A stretch of DNA of 64,000 bases from Candidatus Limnocylindria bacterium (GTDB taxonomy: Bacteria > Chloroflexota > Limnocylindria > QHBO01), in assembly GCA_046262115.1 (NCBI GenBank), contig JBHENJ010000067.1, forward strand, positions 2,211-66,210, in the 5' to 3' direction. Below the pieces are notes generated by a model. It worked only from the letters and a program-made list of their open reading frames with translations, did no database searches and was not told where the DNA came from. This document shows, one piece after another, positions 2,822-23,806 of the stretch. The translations under genes and the position numbers were made by a program. Each line of letters begins with the position of its first letter. Positions within the stretch are counted from its first letter, which is position 1.

Positions 2822-3970
2822 CTAGCGGTAGGGTGGCGCGTAGAGGAGGCCGTCGTCGCTCCACAGGCTGTTGAGTCCACGCTCGAGGCCGATGGCGGTC
2901 TCCGGCCCGAGGTTCCGGTCGTAGATCTCCGCGTAGTTGCCGACCTGGGAGATCACAGTGACAACCCAGTCGGGCTCGAGGCCCAGGCCGGACTCGAACG
3001 GCTCCTCGCCCTCCGGCGTCACGCCCAGAAGGCGCTGGACCACCGGATCCTCGGTCGAGGCGGCCGTCTCCTCGACGTTGTCGGACGTGAGTCCCTGCTC
3101 CTCGGCCTCGATCGTGGCGAACACCACCCACTTGACCACGTTGAACCACTCGTCGTCGCCGAGCGGCACGACCGGGCCGAGCGGCTCCTTCGATAGCACG
3201 TCATCCAGGATCAGGTGATCCTCGGGGTTTTCAAACCCCGAACGCTGGGCCGTCAGCTGGGACCGGTCGCTCGTCGCTGCGTCACAGATGCTGTTCTCCT
3301 CGGTGTAGGTGCTGTAGAGGTCCGGGGCCTCCGGGAATGTCTCGGGATTCAGCTCGATGCCGGCCAACTGCGCGGCGTCCTGCAGGTTCTGCTCGGTCGT
3401 GGTTCCGGTCAGGACGCAGACCGTGGCGCCATCCAGCTCTTCGAGACTCGTCGCATCGATCTGCGTGGAGTTCACCATGATGGCCTGGCCGTCGTAGAAG
3501 GTCGTCGGCGCGAAGAGGCCCCATGCCGTGTCGCGGCTCACCGTCCAGGTGGTGTTCCGGATGAGGACATCGATGTCGCCGGTCTGGAGCGCCGTCGAGC
3601 GCTGGTCGGCCGTCAGCTCGCGGAACTCGACCGCCTCCGCGTCACCGAGCACTGCCGCCGCGATCGCGCGACAGAAGTCCGCGTCGAAGCCGACGGTGTT
3701 GCCCTCCGCATCGAGAACGCTGAACCCGGGTAGCGTGCCGTTGATGCCGCAGATCAGCTCACCGCGATCTCGCACCAGCGCCAGTCGGCCGTCGGTCGGC
3801 TGCTCCGGGGCAGTCGTCTCCGCAGTCGTCTCCGCGGTCGTCTCCGCGGTCGTCTCCGCGGCGGTGGTGCCCGGCTCGTCCGTGGGCAGCGGCGGAGTCG
3901 TGTCGCCGCAGGCCGCGACCACCAGCGCAACCATGAGGGGGCCGATGACAACCGAGATTCGCCTGACCAT
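2822..3970 (-). CDS. General L-amino-acid ABC transporter substrate-binding lipoprotein (AapJ-like)
   Basis: Signal peptide with lipobox (LVVAAC), a strong GGAGGAG Shine-Dalgarno sequence and a family-3 SBP fold. It carries an ETTA x4 linker. Confidence 0.85.
   Translation of the reverse strand: MVRRISVVIGPLMVALVVAACGDTTPPLPTDEPGTTAAETTAETTAETTAETTAPEQPTDGRLALVRDRGELICGINGTLPGFSVLDAEGNTVGFDADFCRAIAAAVLGDAEAVEFRELTADQRSTALQTGDIDVLIRNTTWTVSRDTAWGLFAPTTFYDGQAIMVNSTQIDATSLEELDGATVCVLTGTTTEQNLQDAAQLAGIELNPETFPEAPDLYSTYTEENSICDAATSDRSQLTAQRSGFENPEDHLILDDVLSKEPLGPVVPLGDDEWFNVVKWVVFATIEAEEQGLTSDNVEETAASTEDPVVQRLLGVTPEGEEPFESGLGLEPDWVVTVISQVGNYAEIYDRNLGPETAIGLERGLNSLWSDDGLLYAPPYR
3812..3859. repeat. 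Tandem 12-nt repeat x4 (AGTCGTCTCCGC / GGTCGTCTCCGC) encoding (A)ETTAETTAETTAETTA in the SBP linker
   Basis: Seen directly in the sequence; it is in frame and lies inside the SBP CDS. Confidence 0.9.
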
Positions 3971-4117
3971 GGACGCTCCTCCACTTCACGAACGCGAACC
4001 GGACCGTGCGCCGATCATGCTAGCGGTTCGCCTCGCCGATGCACCATGAGCTGCATCGTCGCCGACCCGGAGACCGGCTCACCTCGATGCGGTCCAGCGT
4101 TTGGCGCTCCGCTGCGG

Positions 4118-4774
4118 TCAGCCGGCTGCGGCGTGTTCCCTGATCCAGGAGGCGACCAACGCGAGGTCGTCGACGAAGAGCCGCATCTCGGCCTGACGGA
4201 ACGCCGGATCGCCCCGCAGGATCGAGGACGGATGGACGGTGGCGGTGATCCACGGTCCGAGCGTCGACTCGAGGAACTGGCCGCGCTGCCTGGTGACGCG
4301 GAAGTCCTTCCCGATCAGCGCCTGCGCCGCGGTGGCGCCGAGGCACACGATGACCTTCGGCCTCACCTGCGCGATCTCGGCCTCGAGCCACGGCCGGCAG
4401 GCGCCGATCTCCTCGGGGTTCGGCTTCTGGTGGATGCGCCGCTTGCCGCGCGGCAGCCACTTGAAGTGCTTCACCACGTTCGTGACGTACGCGCGCCTGC
4501 GGTCGATGCCGGCCTGGTCGAGCGCCTGGTCGAGCAGCTGCCCCGCCGGCCCGACGAACGGTTGGCCGGCCAGGTCCTCGCGATCGCCCGGCTGCTCGCC
4601 GACCAGCATGATGTCGGAGCCGCTGCCGCCCTCGCCGAAGACCGTCTGGGTGCCGATGCGCCACAGGTCGCAGGCTTGGCAGCCCGCCGCCGCCTGGCGC
4701 AGCGTCTCCAGCGTCGGTCGCTCGGGGATCAGGTCACGCGCCGAGCTGGTCGCGGCAGCCTTGGCGTCAAACAT
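4118..4774 (-). CDS. udgX: UdgX-type uracil-DNA glycosylase (family-4-like, forms a covalent complex with uracil-DNA)
   Basis: Carries motif A as GEQPG (family 4 has GEGPG), the R-loop KRRIH with the crosslinking His, the HPSS motif and Fe-S cysteines (CQAC...C...C). The near-full-length alignment to M. smegmatis UdgX is from my memory: GEQPGDxEDLAGxPFVGPAGxLLDxAL, VKHFK...GKRRIH, ACRPWL, LGATAAxAL, ATVHPSS. Confidence 0.85.
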   Translation of the reverse strand: MFDAKAAATSSARDLIPERPTLETLRQAAAGCQACDLWRIGTQTVFGEGGSGSDIMLVGEQPGDREDLAGQPFVGPAGQLLDQALDQAGIDRRRAYVTNVVKHFKWLPRGKRRIHQKPNPEEIGACRPWLEAEIAQVRPKVIVCLGATAAQALIGKDFRVTRQRGQFLESTLGPWITATVHPSSILRGDPAFRQAEMRLFVDDLALVASWIREHAAAG

Positions 4775-4786
4775 CGTCGAATTGCG

Positions 4787-4862
4787 TGGTGGAGATGAGG
4801 GGACTCGAACCCCTGACCCCCGCGATGCGAACGCGGTGCTCTCCCAGCTGAGCTACATCCCC
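4787..4862 (-). tRNA. tRNA-Ala (anticodon CGC), CCA encoded
   Basis: A 76-nt cloverleaf: GGGGATGTAGCTCAGCTGGGAGAGCACCGCGTTCGCATCGCGGGGGTCAGGGGTTCGAGTCCCCTCATCTCCACCA. It has the G3:U70 Ala identity pair, and the anticodon loop TTCGCAT gives anticodon CGC. Confidence 0.9.
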
Positions 4863-4897
4863 ACGGGGTGGCTGCGAGTATAACGCGGCCGTTGCTA

Positions 4898-4913
4898 TCG
4901 AACATACGTTCTA
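4898..4913. promoter_or_regulatory. LexA (SOS) box of the Cheo type: TCGAACATACGTTCTA, a perfect GAAC-N4-GTTC palindrome
   Basis: Lies 3 nt upstream of the imuA' ATG and about 36 nt upstream of the tRNA-Ala 5' end on the other strand. A TATAAC/TATACT -10 hexamer sits at 4879-4884. Confidence 0.7.
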
Positions 4914-4915
4914 TT

Positions 4916-5749
4916 ATGCTCTTCCCTATGCTGGCCACTGCGCCCGTCGTTCGTCCGCTCCCGGAGGTGCTCGTCGAGCTGCGGTCGAAGGGGCTGCGGC
5001 GTGGCGTGACCGATGCCTCCGTTCCCCGCGAGCCGCCGATCTCCACCGGCTTTGCGGAGCTGGATGACGCCCTCCGCACGGACGGGCTCCCGCGCGGAAG
5101 CTGCACGCTCCTCGACGCGGATCGCGGCAGCGGCGCAACCACGCTCGCGCTGCACACGCTCGCCGCGGCGCAGCGCGGCGGTGGCCTGGCCGCGTACGTC
5201 GACGTCGCGGGCTCGTTCGATCCGGCGACCGCGGCGCGCCTCGGCGTCCGGCTCGAGTGGCTGCTGGTGGTGCGGCCGGCGACGATCGACGAGGCGGTCG
5301 AGATTTCCGGCTGGCTGGCGCGCAGCCGCCTGATCGACGCGTTCGTGCTGGATCTCGTCGGCGCGAGGCGCCCCGTCGTGGCCGCGGCGACGAGCGCCGC
5401 GGCGCGGAGCCTCGACCGGCTGGCGCAGGTACTGGCGAGGACCTCGGCGACGGGGATCCTGCTGACGGGTCGAGCAGACCGCGAGGCGGGATTCCAGGTG
5501 GCGGGGGTCCGGATCGCGCTTGAGCGGCGGGCATGGCTGGCCATCGGTCGCGACCTGGTCGGGCAGCGCGTCGCGGCGACCGTCACGCGCCACCGCTGGG
5601 CAGTGCCCGGCGGCCGCGCGGAGCTCGACCTGTGGTTTGCCGAGGGGCGGCGGATCGACCCGATGGTCGCGCGACGCGCCGAGACGCGCGAGCTGCCACC
5701 ATCGGTCGTCGAACGGACGGCCGATCGGGTGCGCGTTCTCACGGCATAG
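4916..5749 (+). CDS. imuA: ImuA' (RecA-fold SOS mutasome accessory protein)
   Basis: RecA-like core with a P-loop (GLPRGSCTLLDADRGSGATTLALHTL) and the sequence AYVDVAGSFDPATAARLGV. The tool ORF start at 4868 would include the LexA box and abut the tRNA, so I start at the ATG at 4916; an alternative ATG is at 4928. Its place in the cassette is LexA box, imuA', imuB. Confidence 0.7.
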   Translation: MLFPMLATAPVVRPLPEVLVELRSKGLRRGVTDASVPREPPISTGFAELDDALRTDGLPRGSCTLLDADRGSGATTLALHTLAAAQRGGGLAAYVDVAGSFDPATAARLGVRLEWLLVVRPATIDEAVEISGWLARSRLIDAFVLDLVGARRPVVAAATSAAARSLDRLAQVLARTSATGILLTGRADREAGFQVAGVRIALERRAWLAIGRDLVGQRVAATVTRHRWAVPGGRAELDLWFAEGRRIDPMVARRAETRELPPSVVERTADRVRVLTA

Positions 5750-5799
5750 GAGGCGAGATTGCGGTTCAGCATCAGCCCTCAAGACGGACATGGCGAGCT

Positions 5800-6068
5800 T
5801 CACGCCGGATGACCTCCGCGAGATCGTCGCCTACATCGCCGAGCACCGGACGAGCGACGCGCCGTTCGACGTCGTGGCCGGCGGGGAGACGCCCGGCGGC
5901 GACGACCCCGCGGAGTGGGCGGCGGCCGGCGCCACCTGGTGGATCGAGCCGATCCATCCGCAGCGCTTCGCGGCGGAGGTGAACGGCGAGCCCGGCAGCG
6001 ATGAGCGGCGAAGGGCCGTGCTCGCGGCGATGACCGAGCGGATCGGCCACGGCCCGCCGCGCTTCTGA
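5800..6068 (+). CDS. Hypothetical 89-aa protein between imuA' and imuB (MASFTPDDLREIVAYIAEHRTSDAPFDVVAGGETPGGDDPAEWAAAGATWWIEPIHP...)
   Basis: Codon usage is coding-like. It faintly resembles the C-terminal end of LLM-class flavin/F420 oxidoreductases, so it may be a gene remnant. It is not part of canonical imuA'-imuB cassettes. Confidence 0.35.
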
Positions 6069-6085: not shown

Positions 6086-7165
6086 GTGTCGCGCATCCTG
6101 GCGATGATCTGGCCGGCGCTCCGTTCCCGCGCGGCTGCCGGCCTGGATCCCGCCGAAGCCGCCGGGTTCGACGCCGCGCTCGACGCGCTGGATGAGCTCT
6201 CCCCGCGGGTCGAGAGCCCGGCCGTCGGATACGCACTCGTGGACGTCACGGGCCTGGGGCGGCTGTTCGGCGACGAGCCGCGGGTCGCCGCGCGGGCCGC
6301 CCACCTCGTCCGGGGCGTTGAACCGCTCGCGGTCCGCCTGGGGATCGGCGACAACCGCTGGCTGGCGACCGTGGCGGCGTCCCGCGCCGCCCACGGCGGC
6401 GTCGAGCGTGTGGCGCCGGACGGCGGCCGCCGCTACCTCGCGCCGCTACCGATCCGGTTGCTCCCCGCCGACGAGGACGTTCGCGGGCGGTTCACGCTGT
6501 TCGGACTGCGGGAGATCGGGCAGCTGGCCGACCTGCCGCGCGCCGCCGTGGCGGCACAGTTCGGCGTGGCGGGCGAGCGGCTGCACGCGCTGGCACGCGG
6601 CGAGGACTCGCGGCCGCTCACGCCGCGCCGCCGTCCCGAATCGGTCGCCGTCGAGTTGCCGTTCGACCCGCCGGTGGACGGCCTGGAGAGGATGGCCTTC
6701 GGCCTGCGACGCGGCTGCGGCGAGCTGTGCGTGACACTCGGGCGGCGGCATCGGGCTCCGGGACGCGCCCGGCTCGAGGTTCAGCTCGAGGCAGGCGCGC
6801 CACTCTGCGTCGAGGTCGTGCTTCCGCAGCCCGCGCTGGAGCCGGACTGGATCGCGCGGCTGCTGATCGCGCGGCTGGAGGCGACGCTGCGGGACGTATC
6901 GGTCCACCACGACGATGCGGAAGAGCCGCGGATCGTCGCGATCCGCCTGACCTTCGATCGGCTCAGCGACCCGTGGGCGCGGCAGCTGCCGGCGTTCGAG
7001 CCGCAGGCGGCGCGCTGGGAGGAGCTGCGCTGGTCGCTTGAGCGGATGCGCAGCCGCTTCGGCCCGGGGCGTCTCCGGCGGGCGCTCCACGAACGGCCGG
7101 CGGCGGCGCTCGCCGAGCGGCAGTCGCGCTTCGTCGACATCGGTCTGGAGGCCGATGCGTCGTGA
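6086..7165 (+). CDS. imuB: ImuB-like inactive Y-family polymerase (N-terminally short; C-terminal domain encoded separately)
   Basis: Contains ELSPRVES...ALVDVTGLGRLFGDEP...RLGIGDNRWLA, the ImuB/UmuC-like little-finger region. At 359 aa it is shorter than typical ImuB (about 450-530 aa), and the canonical N-terminal WCPDWP segment is absent. The GTG start at 6086 is the only start in frame. Confidence 0.65.
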   Translation: MSRILAMIWPALRSRAAAGLDPAEAAGFDAALDALDELSPRVESPAVGYALVDVTGLGRLFGDEPRVAARAAHLVRGVEPLAVRLGIGDNRWLATVAASRAAHGGVERVAPDGGRRYLAPLPIRLLPADEDVRGRFTLFGLREIGQLADLPRAAVAAQFGVAGERLHALARGEDSRPLTPRRRPESVAVELPFDPPVDGLERMAFGLRRGCGELCVTLGRRHRAPGRARLEVQLEAGAPLCVEVVLPQPALEPDWIARLLIARLEATLRDVSVHHDDAEEPRIVAIRLTFDRLSDPWARQLPAFEPQAARWEELRWSLERMRSRFGPGRLRRALHERPAAALAERQSRFVDIGLEADAS

Positions 7166-7416
7166 CCCGTCTCTACACCGATCACCCGTTGGTCCAGGTG
7201 GAGACCGATGTCGACGGGCAGCCACGCACCCTCCGCCTCGACGGCGCGACGCACGGGGAGGTGGGGGTCTGCAACCGCTGGCGGGTCGACGACGACTGGT
7301 GGCGGAACCTGGTGGCGCGCGCCTACTACAAGGTCGTCACGCGCGACGGGCTGCTCTGCACGATCTACCTCGACGAGATGCGCGGGACCTGGCACCTCGA
7401 GCGCATCTTCGACTGA
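7162..7416 (+). CDS. ImuB C-terminal domain-like ORF (DUF4113-like; WRVDDDWW ... AYYKVVTRDGLLCTIYLDEMRGTWHLERIFD)
   Basis: The GTG start overlaps the imuB TGA (GTGA). The sequence matches the conserved extreme C-terminus of ImuB (RFQVV..DG...L.....G.WW.E.iYD), so it is either the frameshifted end of imuB or a split gene. Confidence 0.6.
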   Translation: MTRLYTDHPLVQVETDVDGQPRTLRLDGATHGEVGVCNRWRVDDDWWRNLVARAYYKVVTRDGLLCTIYLDEMRGTWHLERIFD

Positions 7417-7851: not shown

Positions 7852-8274
7852 GTGACCGATGACGAACGCTTCCCCGCCATCGACGACCCCGGAATGACCG
7901 GCGGCGGGATGCCGCGGCCGGGCGGCACGACAGGGGAGGCCGCCGCCGCCAACCCGTCGCAGCCGGCGCCCCGCGACGTCCCGATCAGCGACCTCGACCT
8001 TCCCGGGCCGGATGACCCCGTCGCCTGGCGCTACGTCAAGCCCGGGACGCCGGTCCACGGCCCGGACGGCGAGCAGATCGGCACCGTCGACACGATGCTC
8101 GGCAGCGACCAGGAGGACATCTTCCACGGAATCGCGGTGCGCATCGGGCTGCTCGGCGCGCCGCGCGTCGTCCGCGCCGACGACGTCGCCGAGATGACAC
8201 CCACCGGCGTCGCCGTGCGGCTCGATGCGGAGGCTCTCTCGAACGCGCCCGAGCATCGGCCGGCCGAACGGTAG
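7852..8274 (+). CDS. PRC-barrel / DUF2171-like domain protein
   Basis: The motif VKPGTPVHGPDGEQIGTVDTMLGSDQEDIFHGIAVRIG is PRC-barrel-like. The start is a GTG. Confidence 0.45.
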   Translation: MTDDERFPAIDDPGMTGGGMPRPGGTTGEAAAANPSQPAPRDVPISDLDLPGPDDPVAWRYVKPGTPVHGPDGEQIGTVDTMLGSDQEDIFHGIAVRIGLLGAPRVVRADDVAEMTPTGVAVRLDAEALSNAPEHRPAER

Positions 8275-11643: not shown

Positions 11644-11659
11644 TAGAACATTCGTTCTA
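11644..11659. promoter_or_regulatory. LexA (SOS) box TAGAACATTCGTTCTA (GAAC-N4-GTTC palindrome), 11 nt upstream of the dnaE2 start
   Basis: A perfect palindrome seen in the sequence. dnaE2 is a canonical LexA-regulon member. Confidence 0.75.
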
Positions 11660-11669
11660 ATCTGGGCCG

Positions 11670-14600
11670 ATGCGCTCGGCGCCATCGGTCAGTGAGTACG
11701 TCGAGCTCCACGCCCACAGCAACTTCAGCTTCCTGGACGGGGCGAGCCATCCCGAGGACCTCGTGGCGCAGGCGGCGCTGGTCGACATGCCGGCGCTGGC
11801 GGTCACCGACCACGCCGGCCTCTACGGAGCGGTTCGCCTCTGGAAGGCAGCCGGACAGACCGATACGGACGCTGCCCGCGCAGCCGGGCTCGCACCGGTA
11901 CGCCCGATCGTTGGGCTGGAGATCGCCGTGCCACGGGACGACGACGAGCTTGCCGCCGCACGACGGGGACGGAAGCTCAACGAGCGCGTCCGCGGGGAGC
12001 GGGCGAGCCGCGGCTGGCCCGGCGAGTTCCACGCCGGCCCGCAGCCCGGTGACCATCTCGTCCTGATTGCGCGCGACGCCGAGGGCTACAGCGCGCTGTC
12101 GCGCCTCGCGTCGCGCGGCCACCTCGCCGGTGAGAAGCAGTTCCCTGTCTTCGCGTCCGAGCTCGTCGCGGCCGCGCTCGACGATGCGCGCGGCCACCTG
12201 GTCGCGCTGTCGGGCTGCCGCAACGGCGAGGTCGCGCAACGCGTGCTCGCCGGCGACCGCGACGGGGCGCTCGACAGCGCGCGGCGGCTCGCGGCGCGCT
12301 TCCCGGACGGCGACTTCGCGATCGAGCTGTCGCACCACTGCCAGCCCGACGATGACTGGCTGGTGACCGAGCTGGCCGCGCTCGCCGACGAGGCGGCCCT
12401 GCCAACCGTGGTCACGAACGAGGTGCACTACGCCGAGCCCGGCGGCCATCGGCTCCACGACGTGCTGGTCTGCATCCGGCACGGCGCGACGCTCGACGAG
12501 AGCCACGAGCTGCGACTGCCGAACGGGGAGTATCGGCTCAAGAGCGGTCGTGAGCTCGTGGCGCTCGGCACGCGGCTGCCCGACGCGCGCGCGCGGCGGG
12601 CGTGGCGCGACGGGATGGCCTGGGCGGCCCGTATCGGCGGTGAGTGCCGGCTTGACCTGGGGTTCGAGCAGTATCGGTTTCCGGGCTTTCAGGTTCCTCC
12701 GGGTGAGACGCCGTTCAGCTACCTCTACCAGCTTGCCCACGACGGCTTACGGGAGCGTTACCGCCCGATTACCAAGCGCGCCCTCGAGCAGCTGACGCAT
12801 GAGCTGGACGTCATTGACCGGACCAACCTGGCCGAGTTCTTCCTGATCGTGTGGGACCTGATGGAGTTCGCGCGCCGCTCCGGGATCATCGGCCAGGGGC
12901 GCGGCAGCTCCGGCGACTCGATCGTGGCCTATGCGCTGGGGATCACCAAGGTCGACCCGATCGAGCACAAGCTGCTCTTCGAGCGCTTCATCAACGAGGC
13001 GCGCGCGCTCCCCGACATCGACATCGACTTCGACGTCAACCGGCGCGAGGAGGTGATCCAGTACGTGTACGACCGATACGGCGCGGACCACGCCGCCATG
13101 GTCTGCAACGTGGTGACGTACCGTGCCCGCTCGGCGGTGCGCGAGGTCGCCAAGGCGCTCGGCTTCCCGACCGAGGCGGTCGATCGGCTCGCGAAGTCGC
13201 TCGACACCCGCGACGCCGGCGACGTGGCGCGCGACCTCGCGCTCGACGGGTCGTTCGGTTGGCTGTTCGACGAGATCGGCGCCGACATGGCCTCGCACGC
13301 CGTCCCGCCGGGGCGTGACGGGCGTGGCAACTACGGCAATCGCGTCGGCGGGCTCGTGCAGCGGGTCGCCGACGACTCGTGGAACCCGCGGCCGCGGCCG
13401 GCGCTGCAGCCGGGCGCCGGGGGATCGGCTGCGCCGGCCGCGACACCGGCTCCGCCGCTCGCCGATGGGCGGCCGCGCTCGGAGAGCGGCTGGTATCCGG
13501 CAAAGCGACCGAGCGTCCTCGACGCATCGGTCACTTCGGTGAAGTACGAAGGTCAGGAGACGAAGCGGTACGCGTTGGTCGACGCGGGGCCCGCCGCGCC
13601 GCCGCTCGACGTTCCGGAGCCGCGGGACAACGGGACGCCCGGGCCGTCGGGCGCGCGGCCGAGCGTGGTCCGGATCGACGAGGAGAGCGGCATGCCGGTG
13701 CGCGTCCCGCGCACGACGGAGATCCGGCCGACGGCCGCTATCGACTCCGGCACGGCGTCCGCGCCGCGCAACCGGTGGCAGTGGCTGCTCCAGCTGTGCG
13801 GGGAGATCAACGGCTTCCCCCGGCACCTCGGCATCCACGTAGGCGGGATGCTCGTGACGCGGACGCCGCTCATCGACATCGTCCCGATCGAGCGGGCAAC
13901 CATGCCGCGGAGGGTCGTCACCCAGTACGACAAGGAGGACGTGGAGGCGCTCGGGCTGGTCAAGATCGACCTGCTCTCCCTGCGGACGTTGGGCGTGGTG
14001 AGCGAGGCGCTCGAGACGATCGAGCGGGACACGGGGCGCAGGATCGACCTCGACCGGCTCCCGCACGACGATCCTAAGGTCTTCGCCACGGTCCAGGCGG
14101 CCGATACGGTGGGCATGTTCCAGATCGAGAGCCGGGCGCAGATGCAGGCGCTCCCCAAGGCGCGCCCCGAGCGCTTCGAGGACCTCGTGGTCCAGGTCGC
14201 GATCATCCGCCCCGGGCCGATCCAGGGGAACGCGGTCCACCCCTACCTGCGGCGGCGGGCGGGCCTCGAGCCGGTGACCTACCTCCACCCAAGCCTCGAG
14301 CCGATCCTGGGCGACACGCTCGGCGTGATCCTCTACCAGGAGCAGGTGATGCAGATCGCCATCGCGGTGTGCGGCTACTCGGCGCTGGAGGCCGATACGT
14401 TCCGCAAGGCGATGGGCTCGCATCGGAGTCATCGCGAGATGGAGCGGGAGCACGTCCGATTTGTCGAAGGCGCCATCGCGACGGGGCTGACGCCCGATGA
14501 CGCCGAGGAGCTGTTCCGGCGTTGCGGGGCGTTCGCCGAGTTCGGGTTCGCCCGTGCGCACGCCGCCGCGTTCGCGAAGATCTGCTACGACACGGCGTGG

Positions 14601-15578
14601 CTCAAGCTCTACTACCCGGCGCACTACTGTGCGGGTGTCCTCAACAACCAGCCGATGGGCTTCTACTCCCCGGGAGTGGTCGTCAATGACGCCAAGCGGC
14701 ACGGGACGCGGGTGCTCCCCGTGGACGTCAACGCCTCGTGGTGGTCGACGCGCACGGAACGCGTGGACACGACCGGCGATGCGGCACGCGACTTCGGGGT
14801 CCGCCTCGGGCTCCACCAGGTGAAGGGCATCGGAGAGGAGGACAGGGAGCGCCTCGACGCGGAGCGGGCCGCGGGGCCGTACGCCGGGGTGCGGGAGTTC
14901 GTGGCACGCATGCGGGTGTCGGAGCGGGTCGTCGAGCGGCTGATCTCCGTGGGGGCCTTCGACTGGACGCGACGTGAACGCCGCGAGCTGTTGTGGGAGC
15001 TGCGCGGCACGTGGGCAGCTGCCGACCCGAAACGCCCGGCCCTGCCGCTCACCGAGGTGGAGCCGATCCCCCTTGGCCTTCCCCCCATGACCGCGACCGA
15101 TGAGGTCGCGGCCGACTATCGCGAGATGGGGCTGAGTTCACGAGCACATGCCGTGGAGCTGTATCGACCGAGGTTGCTACCTCGCGGAGTCGTGCCGGTG
15201 GGGGAGGCGGGTCGTTGGCGCGATCGGTACCGGATCAGGCTGGCAGGCCTCGCGGTGGCGGTGCAGCACCCAATGACGGCGAAGAACTTCGTCTTCATCG
15301 CTCTCGAGGACGAGACCGGCATGATCAACGTCACGCTCCGCCCGGACGTCTATCAGCGGCATCGGGGCGTCGTGCACCGCTCGCCGCTCATGGTCGTGGA
15401 GGGCATCCTCCAGGTGGAGGGCGCGGTGCTCAACGTGGTTGCGCAGCGCCTGATCCCGCTCGACGAGTTCGTCGCCTCGACCCGCGAGACTGACTCCCGG
15501 ACCGATCCGGATCGGCGCGGCTCGACGCCCCGCGCCGGAGACCTAGAGGTGCGCAAGCAGCAGCGGATGTTTCGGTAG
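11670..15578 (+). CDS. dnaE2: Error-prone DNA polymerase DnaE2 (ImuC), 1302 aa, with a low-complexity insertion of about 150-200 aa
   Basis: PHP domain start (YVELHAHSNFSFLDGAS), polymerase III alpha core (GIHVGGM, FDLLSLRTLGV) and a C-terminal OB region. An extra Pro/Gly/Ala-rich stretch (about nt 13370-13800) is absent from canonical DnaE2. Confidence 0.9.
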   Translation: MRSAPSVSEYVELHAHSNFSFLDGASHPEDLVAQAALVDMPALAVTDHAGLYGAVRLWKAAGQTDTDAARAAGLAPVRPIVGLEIAVPRDDDELAAARRGRKLNERVRGERASRGWPGEFHAGPQPGDHLVLIARDAEGYSALSRLASRGHLAGEKQFPVFASELVAAALDDARGHLVALSGCRNGEVAQRVLAGDRDGALDSARRLAARFPDGDFAIELSHHCQPDDDWLVTELAALADEAALPTVVTNEVHYAEPGGHRLHDVLVCIRHGATLDESHELRLPNGEYRLKSGRELVALGTRLPDARARRAWRDGMAWAARIGGECRLDLGFEQYRFPGFQVPPGETPFSYLYQLAHDGLRERYRPITKRALEQLTHELDVIDRTNLAEFFLIVWDLMEFARRSGIIGQGRGSSGDSIVAYALGITKVDPIEHKLLFERFINEARALPDIDIDFDVNRREEVIQYVYDRYGADHAAMVCNVVTYRARSAVREVAKALGFPTEAVDRLAKSLDTRDAGDVARDLALDGSFGWLFDEIGADMASHAVPPGRDGRGNYGNRVGGLVQRVADDSWNPRPRPALQPGAGGSAAPAATPAPPLADGRPRSESGWYPAKRPSVLDASVTSVKYEGQETKRYALVDAGPAAPPLDVPEPRDNGTPGPSGARPSVVRIDEESGMPVRVPRTTEIRPTAAIDSGTASAPRNRWQWLLQLCGEINGFPRHLGIHVGGMLVTRTPLIDIVPIERATMPRRVVTQYDKEDVEALGLVKIDLLSLRTLGVVSEALETIERDTGRRIDLDRLPHDDPKVFATVQAADTVGMFQIESRAQMQALPKARPERFEDLVVQVAIIRPGPIQGNAVHPYLRRRAGLEPVTYLHPSLEPILGDTLGVILYQEQVMQIAIAVCGYSALEADTFRKAMGSHRSHREMEREHVRFVEGAIATGLTPDDAEELFRRCGAFAEFGFARAHAAAFAKICYDTAWLKLYYPAHYCAGVLNNQPMGFYSPGVVVNDAKRHGTRVLPVDVNASWWSTRTERVDTTGDAARDFGVRLGLHQVKGIGEEDRERLDAERAAGPYAGVREFVARMRVSERVVERLISVGAFDWTRRERRELLWELRGTWAAADPKRPALPLTEVEPIPLGLPPMTATDEVAADYREMGLSSRAHAVELYRPRLLPRGVVPVGEAGRWRDRYRIRLAGLAVAVQHPMTAKNFVFIALEDETGMINVTLRPDVYQRHRGVVHRSPLMVVEGILQVEGAVLNVVAQRLIPLDEFVASTRETDSRTDPDRRGSTPRAGDLEVRKQQRMFR

Positions 15579-22140: not shown

Positions 22141-22881
22141 ATGCTAGGTCCCATGGACGAGGCCCGGCCGAAGGCGACGCCCGAGCAGATCGCGACGTTC
22201 CTGACCACCGAGCACTACAGCCTCCAGTCGATCCGCACCGGGACGATCGCGGACTCGAACGGCCGCACCGCGCTCTTCCTCGGCACGCTTTCGGGCTCAC
22301 TGGTGGCCCTGGCGCTGGTCGGCCAGGTCTCGCAGCTCGGCGAGCCGATGTTCGTGCTTGCGATGGTCGTCTTCCCGACGGTCCTGTTCATCGGCCTGGT
22401 CACATACGTCCGCGTCCTCCAGGTGGCCCTGGAGGACATCCTCTGCATGCTCGGCATCGCGAGGATCCGGCGTTACTACCAGGAGATGGCGCCTCACACT
22501 CGGCCGTACTTCGTCCTGGGCGCGTACGACGACCTGGACGGGATCTGGGAGAACTACGTCTCCACGATCCCCGGCGGGCTCCAGATCTTCATGACGACGG
22601 CCGGCATGGTGGCGGTGATCGACAGCGTCCTGGCGGGCGTCACCGCCGCGCTGTTGCTTAGCCGCATCGGGATGGGCATGACCGACGTCCTGCTTCCGGG
22701 CATCGCGGCGTTCTTCATCGTCCTGGTGGCGCTCCAGGCCCACCAGGCGAGGTGCTGGCGCCGCCTGCGCCGCGGCTGGCGCTCACGCTTCCCCACGCCT
22801 GCGGTCGCCAGCGGTCCCGTGGAGACCGGCGCGGGTACGGGCGCCGCCGCCGGCGAGGGCGTGACCGCGACGCGGCGCTAG
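22141..22881 (+). CDS. Integral membrane protein, function unknown
   Basis: Multiple TM helices. Its start is 3 nt after the upstream stop. Confidence 0.45.
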   Translation: MLGPMDEARPKATPEQIATFLTTEHYSLQSIRTGTIADSNGRTALFLGTLSGSLVALALVGQVSQLGEPMFVLAMVVFPTVLFIGLVTYVRVLQVALEDILCMLGIARIRRYYQEMAPHTRPYFVLGAYDDLDGIWENYVSTIPGGLQIFMTTAGMVAVIDSVLAGVTAALLLSRIGMGMTDVLLPGIAAFFIVLVALQAHQARCWRRLRRGWRSRFPTPAVASGPVETGAGTGAAAGEGVTATRR

Positions 22882-23774
22882 AGCGCCAGCACGAACTGGT
22901 CCGGCTCCGGTGGCGGCGCGAGCGGCGTGGCTCTTCGGTCGGCGATCTCGAACCGTGCGGCAAGCTCCCGCACGCGCTTGACGGTCGGCGCGGTCTCCCC
23001 GTGCGGCAGATAAGAGCGCCGTGCGTACAGGCGCTCGTATCGGTCCAGCTCCTGCGGCCAGTCGCGCGCCAGGTTCTCGACGAAGTGCTCCCGCGTGCCG
23101 GGAGTCAGGTACAGGAGCTTGCCCCACACGTTCGTGGCGCCGGCCGCGCGTGCCGCTCGGACGACCTCTGCGAGCTGGTCGGGGCGGTCGGAGAGGCCCG
23201 GCAGGATCGGAGCGATCCCGACGCCCGCACGGATGCCCGCGTCGACGAGTGTCTTGAGCGCGCGCAGCCGCTGGCGGGGCGGCGGGGTGCCGGGCTCGGT
23301 GCGCCGCCATACCTCCGCGTCGAGGGTCGGGATCGAGAAGGTGACCGATACCTCCGCCCGCCGGGCCGCCTCGCTCAGGACGTCGAGGTCGCGCACGATC
23401 ATGGGCGAGCGGGTGATAATGCTGAGCGGGTTCCGTGCGTCGGACAGCACCTCTAGGCACGCGCGCGTCAGCCGGTATCGGCCCTCGGCCGGCTGGTACG
23501 GGTCGGTCGCCGCGCCGATGGCGACCATCTCGCGGCGCCATGACCTGCGCGCCAGCTCTTTGCGGAGGACGTCCGCGACGTTGATCTTCACGCGGATGCT
23601 CGTCCCGTACCGGTCGTCAGACGGTCGGCCGGCGCGAAGCTCGAACCCGCGGACGTAACAGAACGTGCACCGATGCGCGCAGCCCATGTATGGGTTGAGC
23701 GACCAGCGGAACGGCATGCTGGTCACCTTGTTGAGCGCGCTCCGGCAGGGCTCCTCGCGGTACTCGATCTTCAT
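22878..23774 (-). CDS. Radical-SAM DNA-repair-photolyase-like protein (SplB / Rv2578c family)
   Basis: The CAHRCTFCY radical-SAM cluster motif is close to the N-terminus (start at MKIEYREEP), and the fold is SplB-like. A LexA box lies 17 nt upstream. Confidence 0.7.
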   Translation of the reverse strand: MKIEYREEPCRSALNKVTSMPFRWSLNPYMGCAHRCTFCYVRGFELRAGRPSDDRYGTSIRVKINVADVLRKELARRSWRREMVAIGAATDPYQPAEGRYRLTRACLEVLSDARNPLSIITRSPMIVRDLDVLSEAARRAEVSVTFSIPTLDAEVWRRTEPGTPPPRQRLRALKTLVDAGIRAGVGIAPILPGLSDRPDQLAEVVRAARAAGATNVWGKLLYLTPGTREHFVENLARDWPQELDRYERLYARRSYLPHGETAPTVKRVRELAARFEIADRRATPLAPPPEPDQFVLAL

Positions 23775-23790: not shown

Positions 23791-23806
23791 TAGAACGTCA
23801 GTTCTA
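23791..23806. promoter_or_regulatory. LexA (SOS) box TAGAACGTCAGTTCTA (GAAC-N4-GTTC palindrome) in the divergent region between the radical-SAM gene and the RNHCP gene
   Basis: A perfect palindrome seen in the sequence. Confidence 0.7.

Follow-up and report, generated by a model that had tools for sequence, protein, structure and literature searches.

In the window, i.e. the whole 64-kb stretch of DNA that was analysed, the gene udgX is located on the minus strand at positions 4118..4774. The open reading frame starts with ATG and encodes 218 aa. With a GC3 of 0.94 in a window of 70% GC it fits a real gene. On the same strand a tRNA-Ala(CGC) gene with encoded CCA (4787..4862, ARAGORN) precedes it, and the gap to the udgX ATG is 12 nt. 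A divergent spacer of 65 bp follows, in which a LexA-type box of the form GAAC-N4-GTTC (TCGAACATACGTTCTA, 4898..4913) was detected by motif scan. From this spacer an operon runs away from udgX on the plus strand. It comprises an imuA'-like truncated RecA-fold gene (4928..5749, 273 aa), a small conserved ORF (5790..6068, 92 aa), an imuB-like gene for a Y-family polymerase core (6086..7165, 359 aa) and a gene for a stand-alone ImuB-C domain protein (7162..7416, 84 aa), whose start overlaps the imuB stop (GTGA). Further along the plus strand lies dnaE2 (11670..15578), encoding a 1302-aa error-prone DNA polymerase into which about 190 aa are inserted (aa 516-704). It was identified with model NF004225 (1060 bits vs. 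a cut-off of 939) and by its Pfam domains.

This gene order is directly established. The preliminary description had udgX embedded in an SOS mutagenesis locus, next to imuA'/imuB/dnaE2. The adjacency to the imuA'-like and imuB-like genes was confirmed. For dnaE2 it does not apply, as this gene is 6.9 kb away from udgX behind three unrelated genes (RibD_C, F420 LLM oxidoreductase and VanY), and "embedded" is not the right term for a divergent gene at the edge of the locus. For the ORF 7852-8274 only a sub-threshold match to DUF2171 was found with Pfam and NCBIfam.

The product of the imuA'-like gene matched the RecA N-terminal region with 86-92 bits. Towards the ImuA model NF033429 it reached 39.8 bits, below the cut-off of 150, and no match to the ImuA' model NF058630 was detected for the product of 4928..5749. 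The earlier label imuA' is therefore backed by RecA-fold similarity and context, but not by these models. We use "imuA'-like" as a putative designation, based on the N-terminal RecA-fold similarity and on the place of the gene before imuB. The imuB-like product is only weakly matched by Pol IV models, at 77 bits where the cut-offs exceed 250, and by IMS with 25.7 bits. Its N-terminus is about 55 residues shorter than that of Pol IV, residue 29 being aligned to profile position 84. By ORF clustering the gene was grouped with ImuB genes from other loci. The ImuB-C domain protein was recognized by a home-made profile (E 1e-9) and a WR..DWWR motif, and blastp aligned it with the C-termini of full-length ImuB proteins (1e-7 to 1e-5). 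A homolog is situated between imuB and dnaE2 in locus L030. Neither this ORF (7162-7416) nor the small ORF 5790-6068 gave a match in Pfam and NCBIfam; a 96-aa gene occupies the place of the latter in the related locus L083. A frameshift in imuB was considered and rejected, since L083 shows the same split into a core and an 84-aa ORF.

The protein encoded by udgX belongs to the UdgX clade by every sequence criterion tested. It passed the NCBIfam profile TIGR03914 (UdgX) with 278.6 bits at a cut-off of 189.95. With phmmer against the PDB the best matches were all chains of Mycobacterium smegmatis UdgX (6ail, 6iod and others; E 5e-65, 222 bits), aligned to aa 9-208, whereas the family-4 uracil-DNA glycosylase (UDG) 1ui0 reached 114 bits (E 7e-32), about half the bits of the UdgX chains. 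A MAFFT alignment gave 55% identity to M. smegmatis UdgX over the full length. Thus, the membership in the UdgX clade and the whole-length alignment, both named in the preliminary description, were borne out by homology search.

The motifs named there could all be read in the translation. Motif A, GEQPG (aa 59-63), has Q where family-4 UDGs have A or G; it is invariant in the homolog alignment and was found in 159 of the 164 surveyed homologs. The R-loop KRRIH (aa 111-115, with His115) aligns column for column with K105-H109 of M. smegmatis. Motif B, HPSSILR (aa 181-187), agrees with the pattern HPS(S/A)(L/V)(L/V)R, apart from a conservative Ile instead of L/V at the fifth position that is present in most aligned homologs. 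The predicted Fe-S ligands C32, C35, H103 and C126 are all invariant in the homolog alignment, H103 taking the fourth ligand position in a 3Cys+1His pattern. The exchange of one Fe-S cysteine for histidine has been described for UdgX (Sang 2015, PMC4787834). In M. smegmatis UdgX ten residues were studied by mutation, namely E52, Q53, D56, D59, F65, N91, K94, R107, H109 and H178 (PMC10776899). Their counterparts are E60, Q61, D64, D67, F73, N99, K102, R113, H115 and H181. Because these experimentally defined residues are completely conserved, we infer that the protein would crosslink to DNA. The identification itself is routine and not new, since an identical protein in NCBI (Candidatus Limnocylindria, Chloroflexota MAG) is already named "UdgX family". 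The organism accordingly belongs to Chloroflexota and not to the actinobacteria.

Two more LexA-type boxes were found in the window. The second (TAGAACATTCGTTCTA, 11644..11659) precedes the dnaE2 ATG by 10 nt and the third (TAGAACGTCAGTTCTA, 23791..23806) lies 16 nt upstream of an splB-like radical SAM gene (22878..23774, minus strand; Rv2578c-family rSAM 282 bits, Radical_SAM domain). Hence each of the three GAAC-N4-GTTC boxes stands 10-16 nt before the start of imuA', dnaE2 or the splB-like gene. For AGAAC-N4-GTTCT with at most one mismatch, four matches were counted vs. 0.6 expected, a number reached in none of 100 shuffles. The operator type is directly established, and the box before the splB-like gene validates it for this genome. 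Within the 64-kb window no lexA gene was found.

The statement that udgX lies under a LexA box could not be upheld. Between the nearest box (4898-4913) and the udgX ATG there are 123 nt, which include the tRNA-Ala gene; the distance of the box is 14 nt to the imuA' ATG and 35 nt to the 5' end of the tRNA. In the relative L083 the spacing to imuA' is kept (13 nt), whereas the spacing to the putative -10 on the tRNA side is not conserved (15 nt in the window vs. 30 nt). As the udgX ATG follows the tRNA by only 12 nt, space for an own promoter is absent, and tRNA-Ala(CGC) and udgX are probably co-transcribed. A scan of positions 3900-5100 for sigma-70 promoters and terminators found nothing. Our statements on a promoter of tRNA and udgX are based on a TATACT upstream of the tRNA, which was spotted by eye as conserved in three relatives. 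The right half of the box takes the expected -35 position for this TATACT, 15 nt before it. LexA could therefore also occlude the putative promoter of tRNA and udgX.

Close relatives of the locus were compared. In L083 (83% identical) the order imuA'<>tRNA-udgX is retained, with an imuA'-like product of 272 aa matching RecA_N, an imuB-like product of 378 aa and an ImuB-C-like product of 84 aa. The tRNA also precedes udgX in L081 (8-nt gap) and in L083/L084 (197-nt gap). In L081 (90% identical) a second UdgX paralog is located upstream of the tRNA in place of imuA'.

The co-localisation survey suggested in the preliminary description was carried out with 80 species-level genome loci and a metagenome set, which sample the nearest homologs of the query (56-73% identity) and not all UdgX proteins. 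In the genome set, imu/dnaE2, lexA, recA or splB were present within 10 kb of udgX in 20 of the 80 loci, 14 of them within 2 kb; imuA/imuB/dnaE2 were present within 10 kb in 11 of the 80. After clustering of the UdgX proteins at 70% identity, an SOS neighbour was found in 13 of 52 clusters. This adjacency far exceeds the chance level, roughly estimated at about 1-2%, and is mostly a matter of the nearest 2 kb. Across phyla, SOS genes and udgX are combined in at least eight different ways, and stand-alone udgX genes adjacent to SOS genes were detected in Acidobacteriota, Chloroflexota, Actinomycetota, Myxococcota and Dormibacterota. About 75% of the surveyed loci have no SOS neighbour within the DNA available. 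L062 and L068, two of the three further Chloroflexota loci, are among these, as is a homolog of 72% identity from a contig of 100 kb.

In the metagenome set 72 loci offer 300 bp or more upstream of udgX, and 46 of these have a divergent imuA whose start is no further than about 300 nt from that of udgX; lexA was observed just downstream of udgX in 37 of 80. These loci are not independent, because one soil lineage dominates the sample. Many Acidobacteriota have the arrangement dnaE2-imuB-imuA<>udgX-lexA, and the order dnaE2<-imuB<-imuA<>udgX->lexA was upheld by independent gene calls and Pfam matches. The imu cassette is the commonest and tightest partner of udgX, and in dozens of loci only 6-90 nt separate the start codons. 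In Sorangium the cassette is found about 5 kb downstream of udgX. For splB, adjacency was found in L014, L039, L065 and L058. A LexA box, splB and udgX follow each other on one strand in the Chloroflexi relative L014, and in L039 and L065 the divergent splB and udgX share a box that stands between them. In L028, L031, L051 and L057, as well as L162 and L164, udgX is followed at a distance of 1.8-5.2 kb by a genuine recA (TIGR02012, >550 bits). When all flanking ORFs were clustered, no further specific recurrent neighbour emerged; the other large clusters were large paralogous families (response regulators, ABC ATPases, SDRs, aldehyde dehydrogenases and TonB receptors). On the basis of the survey counts, the acidobacterial arrangement and the LexA-box-splB-udgX order, UdgX is a recurrent neighbour of SOS genes.

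The regulation of udgX at these loci was examined by scanning for GAAC-N4-GTTC in the 350 bp upstream of udgX. A single match was obtained in 164 loci (L039); this motif is used by some of the sampled phyla only. In Acidobacteria the operator of the lexA promoter consists of direct repeats, (G/A)TTCG-N6-(G/A)TTCG. These were not seen in the imuA<>udgX spacers, which instead contain the lineage-specific palindromes ATAGGNCCTAT and CGCAAAC-N4/5-GTTTGCG. LexA control of udgX is thus not established for Acidobacteria.

Literature searches on UdgX with imuB, on MSMEG_0265 and on lexA, imuA, Acidobacteria and glycosylase, with many subscription papers lying outside their range, yielded no description of this neighbourhood. 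The physiological role of UdgX is still described as largely unknown by its discoverers, and protection of AP sites was proposed (PMC10359453). At the same time the enzyme has found wide use as a tool in uracil mapping, base editors and DNA-protein conjugation. The window alone would be an anecdote. Its recurrence in the survey provides genomic-context support for the RecA- and TLS-dependent processing proposed from overexpression data in E. coli, and the pairing with SOS genes across phyla points to a testable role for UdgX.

Since udgX is repeatedly found beside imuA-imuB-dnaE2, lexA, recA and splB in at least five phyla, a role in the DNA damage response is most likely. With slightly better than even confidence we propose that the gene encodes a functional UdgX with such a role, whose adducts are handed over to RecA processes and to synthesis by ImuA'/ImuB/DnaE2. 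As a family-4-derived Fe-S uracil-DNA glycosylase the protein would flip out uracil and break the glycosidic bond. In the same step the histidine of the R-loop (His115, equivalent to His109 of M. smegmatis) would bond to C1' of the abasic sugar, and a suicide DNA-protein crosslink would be formed instead of a free AP site. The gene would be transcribed just behind tRNA-Ala(CGC), opposite the presumably LexA-box-controlled operon of imuA'-like gene, small ORF, imuB-like gene and ImuB-C. Uracils arising from cytosine deamination, which should be frequent in SOS-exposed single-stranded DNA, might be captured by UdgX as protein-capped AP sites. Such capping would keep strands from being broken through the action of ordinary UDG and AP lyase. 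The adduct could then be tolerated or removed via RecA-dependent processes and translesion synthesis by ImuA'/ImuB/DnaE2; this hand-off to the mutasome, like the crosslinking and regulation of the protein, is stated here as a proposal. Published work agrees with such a role: E. coli strains without recA, recB, ruvA, dinB or umuDC tolerate UdgX poorly (PMC4787834), AP-site protection was proposed (PMC10359453), and an operon with a UDG domain was predicted to be LexA-controlled in Verrucomicrobia and Bacteroidetes (PMC4951493, PMC8565304).

A more specific version is that UdgX acts as a dedicated accessory of a LexA/ImuA/ImuB/DnaE2 cassette for adaptive mutagenesis. During the SOS response it would turn deaminated cytosines of exposed single-stranded DNA into capped AP sites. 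These would be bypassed by the mutasome, gaps would be protected from breakage and uracils channelled into damage-induced, C-targeted mutagenesis. We put this forward tentatively, as less likely than not.

Rather unlikely is the explanation that a genuine UdgX is expressed as a constitutive housekeeping gene from the tRNA-Ala(CGC) promoter and that the proximity of imuA' reflects synteny without regulatory or functional coupling. Promoters of tRNA genes are normally constitutive. The short gap behind the tRNA, in the window as in L081, leaves no room for a promoter of udgX, and the conserved TATACT as well as a box spacing that is kept towards imuA' and not towards the tRNA fit this explanation. 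So do the retention of tRNA-udgX without imuA' in L081 and the absence of SOS neighbours at most UdgX loci. Against it stand the frequency of SOS adjacency, which far exceeds the chance estimate, is highest within 2 kb and comes in at least eight arrangements, the loci in which udgX sits right behind or next to a LexA box (L014, L039, L065), and the position of the box half at the putative -35, from which LexA could block transcription of tRNA and udgX.

It is improbable that UdgX is linked to SOS but partners RecA recombination, proteolysis or an SplB-type radical SAM protein rather than ImuA'/ImuB/DnaE2, the adjacency to imu being mere clustering of SOS genes. The six loci with recA downstream and the four with adjoining splB agree with such partners, as do predictions of LexA regulation for operons of UDG-domain and radical-SAM genes (PMC4951493, PMC8565304, PMC3765255). 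Among the E. coli mutants with poor tolerance of UdgX, those in recA are the most sensitive (Sang 2015, PMC4787834), which also speaks for RecA, but the sensitivity of the dinB and umuDC mutants and the rank of the imu cassette as commonest and tightest partner argue against this explanation. That the protein is an ordinary turnover family-4 UDG of base excision repair can hardly be believed. It does pass the broader family-4 model TIGR00758 (150.7 bits vs. a cut-off of 125.3) and shares the fold and the predicted Fe-S cluster of the family. Against this explanation speak the Q of motif A, the complete KRRIH R-loop including the nucleophilic His, and the His in place of one Cys ligand. UdgX structures are matched with twice the bits of family-4 UDGs, and turnover of M. 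smegmatis UdgX appears only when His109 is mutated (PMC10776899, PMC4787834).

The preferred reading, a UdgX acting in the DNA damage response, can be compared with several known systems. Family-4 UDGs, e.g. Thermus thermophilus UDGA (PDB 1UI0), share the alpha/beta fold family and the predicted Fe-S cluster with the udgX product. They have GE(A/G)PG, no KRRIH loop, four Cys ligands and turnover, whereas the udgX product shows none of these sequence states and is predicted not to turn over. For an operon of a radical-SAM gene (TIGR03916) and a DUF4130-UDG gene (TIGR03915 plus TIGR03914 domain), LexA control was predicted in Verrucomicrobia, Alphaproteobacteria and Bacteroidetes (PMC4951493, PMC8565304). 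The network of SOS gene neighbourhoods drawn up by Aravind et al. 2013 (PMC3765255) likewise includes a TIGR03914-type UDG domain. The UDG domain of that operon belongs to the same NCBIfam family as the udgX product, which in contrast stands alone, without an adjoining DUF4130/TIGR03916 partner. Such a partner was not found among the flanking ORFs of the surveyed UdgX loci either; what recurs beside udgX is imuA-imuB-dnaE2, lexA, recA or a radical SAM gene of the SplB/Rv2578c type.

SRAP proteins (bacterial YedK, human HMCES) also crosslink covalently to AP sites, and their genes are tied to SOS and ImuB-DnaE2 neighbourhoods (PMC3765255). The comparison with UdgX is a working analogy only and not a homology, as fold and chemistry are unrelated. 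SRAP forms a thiazolidine with its N-terminal Cys on an AP site that is already present. UdgX, unlike SRAP, makes the AP site itself from uracil and is linked via His. If UdgX served as an accessory of the mutasome, it would correspond to the HMCES/SRAP logic, in a bacterial form that uses a glycosylase.

The closest known protein is UdgX of M. smegmatis (MSMEG_0265; PDB 6AIL, 6IOD, 6AJO, 8IIE and others), in which UdgX and mutasome are both already under study. GEQPG, KRRIH with the crosslinking His, HPSS(L/I)LR and 3Cys+1His are common to both proteins, and all ten mutationally defined residues are kept in the protein from Chloroflexota. The latter has a 3-residue deletion before motif B and an R-loop that is 2 residues shorter (FKWLPRGKRRIH) than that of M. 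smegmatis UdgX (FKFTRAAGGKRRIH), the shorter form being the common one among the aligned homologs.

The udgX gene (4118..4774, minus strand) starts with ATG and codes for 218 amino acids. With a GC3 of 0.94 in the 70% GC window, its codon usage fits a genuine gene. Directly upstream on the same strand tRNA-Ala(CGC) (4787..4862, minus strand) is located; an amino-acid ABC transporter lies on the other side. The gap between tRNA and udgX amounts to 12 nt in the window (4775-4862), counted from the tRNA 3' end to the ATG, 8 nt in L081 (667-752) and 197 nt in L083 (3350-3622), the loci of two close relatives with 90% and 83% identity, respectively. The 12 nt of the window therefore leave no space for a separate promoter, and udgX would most simply be read as co-transcribed with tRNA-Ala(CGC). 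Such proximity of a protein gene to the tRNA ahead of it implies a joint tRNA-mRNA transcript, which becomes an almost leaderless mRNA once the tRNA 3' end is processed; the 12 nt in between, CGCAATTCGACG, show no recognisable Shine-Dalgarno sequence. Within the longer spacer of L083 (3426-3621), a GTGACGCAC / GTGCATC-type motif occurs about five times in imperfect form; it is absent from the window and may represent an operator array or a repeat. In L081, the closest relative, tandem UdgX-family genes (2-598 and 750-1415, both plus strand) flank the tRNA. The upstream paralog carries KRRLH where the UdgX of the window has KRRIH, reaches 275.6 bits with TIGR03914 and takes the position of imuA' upstream of the tRNA.

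The preliminary description placed udgX under a LexA box. Such a box, TCGAACATACGTTCTA (4898-4913, GAAC-N4-GTTC), is located in the 65 bp that separate the tRNA from the imuA'-like gene, 14 nt from the ATG of the latter (4928). This distance is retained in L083 (13 nt), whereas the conserved TATACT ahead of the tRNA is 15 nt from the box in the window and 30 nt in L083. Judged by its spacing, the box therefore belongs primarily to imuA'. As worded, the claim is not supported: the tRNA intervenes between box and udgX, and the conserved spacing is that to imuA'. Since the right half of the box falls at the expected -35 position for the TATACT of the window, LexA could additionally occlude the putative tRNA/udgX promoter there. 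From the tRNA arrangement it might also be argued that udgX is transcribed along with the tRNA as a housekeeping gene and that its synteny with SOS genes is incidental. We consider this the most serious alternative, though rather unlikely in view of the survey of related loci described below.

The imuA'-like gene (4928..5749, plus strand) codes for a RecA-fold protein resembling the N-terminal part of RecA. The ImuA model matched it weakly (39.8 bits, cut-off 150) and the ImuA' model gave no match. The operon continues on the plus strand with a conserved ORF of 92 aa (5790-6068), an imuB-like Y-family core of 359 aa (6086-7165), with an N-terminus about 55 residues shorter than in Pol IV, and a stand-alone ImuB-C domain protein of 84 aa (7162-7416), whose GTG overlaps the imuB stop. 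Just after the operon an ORF of 140 aa (7852-8274, plus strand) follows. No above-threshold family match was obtained for the 92-aa and 140-aa ORFs, the latter showing a sub-threshold match to DUF2171; L083 has counterparts of similar size (96 and 140 aa) at equal positions. The split ImuB is kept in L083 as well (378 aa and 84 aa), and the actinomycete locus L030 encodes a homolog of the ImuB-C protein between imuB and dnaE2.

The dnaE2 gene (11670-15578; NF004225, 1060 bits, cut-off 939) is preceded at 10 nt by a second LexA-type box, TAGAACATTCGTTCTA (11644-11659). Its product of 1302 aa contains about 190 inserted residues (aa 516-704), which split the DNA_pol3_alpha domain and gave no match to a Pfam family. 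Ahead of dnaE2 unrelated genes are found (RibD_C, F420-dependent LLM oxidoreductase, VanY). Hence the proposed location of UdgX next to imuA', imuB and dnaE2 holds for the adjoining imuA'-like and imuB-like genes, but not for dnaE2. A SplB/Rv2578c-type radical SAM gene (22878-23774, minus strand, start 23774), of a family reported to be LexA-regulated in many phyla (PMC4951493), has a third box (23791-23806) 16 nt upstream. The longest ORF call for this gene (to 23906) overextends across the box. For AGAAC-N4-GTTCT with at most one mismatch, 4 matches were counted in the 64-kb window compared to 0.6 expected, and none of 100 shuffles reached 4. The operator type is regarded as validated, because three boxes in 64 kb are each positioned 10-16 nt before a canonical SOS gene.

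The survey for co-localisation suggested in the preliminary description was carried out with one genome per GTDB species, scanned with a UdgX alignment. It resulted in 80 loci from many phyla, 56-69% identical to the UdgX of the window. Imu genes (imuA-like/imuB/dnaE2) were present in 11/80 loci; in tBLASTn searches and all-against-all clustering of the ORFs around udgX they formed the sole specific recurrent neighbourhood. Any SOS gene (the imu set, lexA, splB or genuine recA with TIGR02012 above 550 bits) was found within 10 kb for 20/80 loci, for 14 of these 20 within 2 kb. Of the 56 loci whose flanks extend 3 kb or more in each direction, 15 had an SOS neighbour; after clustering UdgX at 70% identity, 13 of 52 clusters were positive. 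Chance would give about 1.6% by a rough estimate, which assumes four such loci per 5-Mb genome and ±10 kb. For about three quarters of the loci no SOS neighbour was found in the DNA at hand, among them a homolog with 72% identity, whose contig extends over 100 kb, and the Limnocylindria loci L062 and L068; many contigs are short, and the counts are lower bounds.

In Acidobacteriota (Blastocatellia and other classes) imuA-imuB(-dnaE2) is divergent and abuts udgX (L002, L004, L026, L046) or lies 1.1-1.5 kb off (L008, L025). The cassette is located on the same strand 3-6 kb downstream in Sorangium (L005, L010) and L030. In loci of Thermoanaerobaculia, Dormibacterota and Acidobacteriota (L028, L031, L051, L057, and also L162 and L164), genuine recA follows udgX on the same strand at a distance of 1.8-5.2 kb (TIGR02012 above 550 bits where scanned). 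The order LexA box, splB, udgX on a single strand was observed for Chloroflexi (L014), and two Solirubrobacterales loci (L039, L065) share divergent splB and udgX with a LexA box between them. These recA and splB loci would also fit an SOS link of UdgX via recombination or SplB and not the mutasome. With the imu genes as the commonest and closest partners, we regard this as improbable.

A metagenome sample was dominated by one soil lineage and is not independent evidence; both samples comprise the nearest homologs of the window UdgX, not all UdgX. Divergent imuA was present in 46 of the 72 metagenome loci for which 300 bp or more ahead of udgX were available (median distance of start codons about 52 nt, minimum 6 nt), and lexA 27-540 nt downstream in 37/80. 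The arrangement of dnaE2, imuB and imuA (RecA_N+MT3502_N) divergent from udgX and lexA was confirmed by independent gene calls and precomputed Pfam matches, the lexA assignment by 197 bits on TIGR00498. Start codons of imuA and udgX are 6-90 nt apart in Acidobacteriota (L002, L004, L088, L112, L152, L153 and others). Their lexA has a separate promoter, TTGAC-N17-GATAAT, overlapped by a direct-repeat operator, (G/A)TTCG-N6-(G/A)TTCG. This operator was not found in the acidobacterial imuA-udgX spacers, which differ by containing lineage-specific palindromes, either ATAGGNCCTAT in two to three copies or GTAACGCAAAC-N4/5-GTTTGCGTTAC in one to two. One acidobacterial cassette (L165/L166, 6310-7092) contains an opposite-strand MerR/TipAS-family regulator gene between imuA and imuB.

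The motifs of the protein named in the preliminary description were all recovered from the translation: GEQPG (aa 59-63), KRRIH (aa 111-115), HPSSILR (aa 181-187) and the cysteines C32, C35 and C126. Membership in the UdgX clade is confirmed by TIGR03914, "UdgX family uracil-DNA binding protein" (NCBIfam, 278.6 bits, curated cut-off 189.95). The broader family-4 UDG model of NCBIfam is passed too (150.7 bits), and Pfam gave the UDG superfamily only. Among all PDB sequences, UdgX of M. smegmatis and its mutants are the 24 best matches (E 5e-65, 222 bits, aa 9-208), compared to 114 bits for the top family-4 UDG, 1ui0. Identity to M. smegmatis UdgX is 55% (MAFFT). Mutagenesis of the latter marked E52, Q53, D56, D59, F65, N91, K94, R107, H109 and H178 as important (PMC10776899); all ten are conserved as E60, Q61, D64, D67, F73, N99, K102, R113, H115 and H181. 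At the fourth Fe-S ligand position His103 replaces Cys, a UdgX-specific state (Sang et al. 2015). The R-loop of M. smegmatis UdgX is two residues longer; the shorter form of the window prevails among aligned homologs. By homology, the protein should excise uracil and trap the abasic sugar covalently via His115, with Glu60 in the catalytic dyad; a turnover family-4 UDG, although the family-4 model is passed, is very improbable given the PDB scores and conserved residues. NCBI already lists an identical protein from a Chloroflexota MAG, which identifies the host as such. The protein thus adds one more member to a known family; it is already annotated automatically, and its identification is routine.

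From the gene context we infer a role of UdgX in the DNA-damage response. DNA that becomes exposed as single strands during SOS would deaminate fast, and the AP sites produced in it by an ordinary UDG would be fragile. UdgX would cap these sites, and the adducts might then be handled by RecA-dependent processes, proteolysis and bypass by ImuA'/ImuB/DnaE2. Such a role fits the poor tolerance of UdgX by E. coli without recA, recB, ruvA, dinB or umuDC (PMC4787834) and the AP-site protection proposed by the Varshney laboratory (PMC10359453). The observation is moderately interesting, because the context offers a concrete, testable handle on the cellular function of UdgX.

In the searchable literature, with its incomplete coverage, no description of a stand-alone UdgX paired with imuA-imuB-dnaE2 and lexA was found. 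Stand-alone ImuB-C systems that lack imuA were described earlier (Timinskas and Venclovas 2019), whereas the window pairs stand-alone ImuB-C with an imuA'-like gene. For a TIGR03914-family UDG domain that forms a fusion with DUF4130 and is accompanied by a radical SAM enzyme, LexA control was predicted in Verrucomicrobia, Alphaproteobacteria and Bacteroidetes; this UDG domain is also present in a published SOS neighbourhood network. The UDG of this system belongs to the same NCBIfam family as the UdgX of the window, but it is part of a fusion, whereas UdgX is a stand-alone protein.
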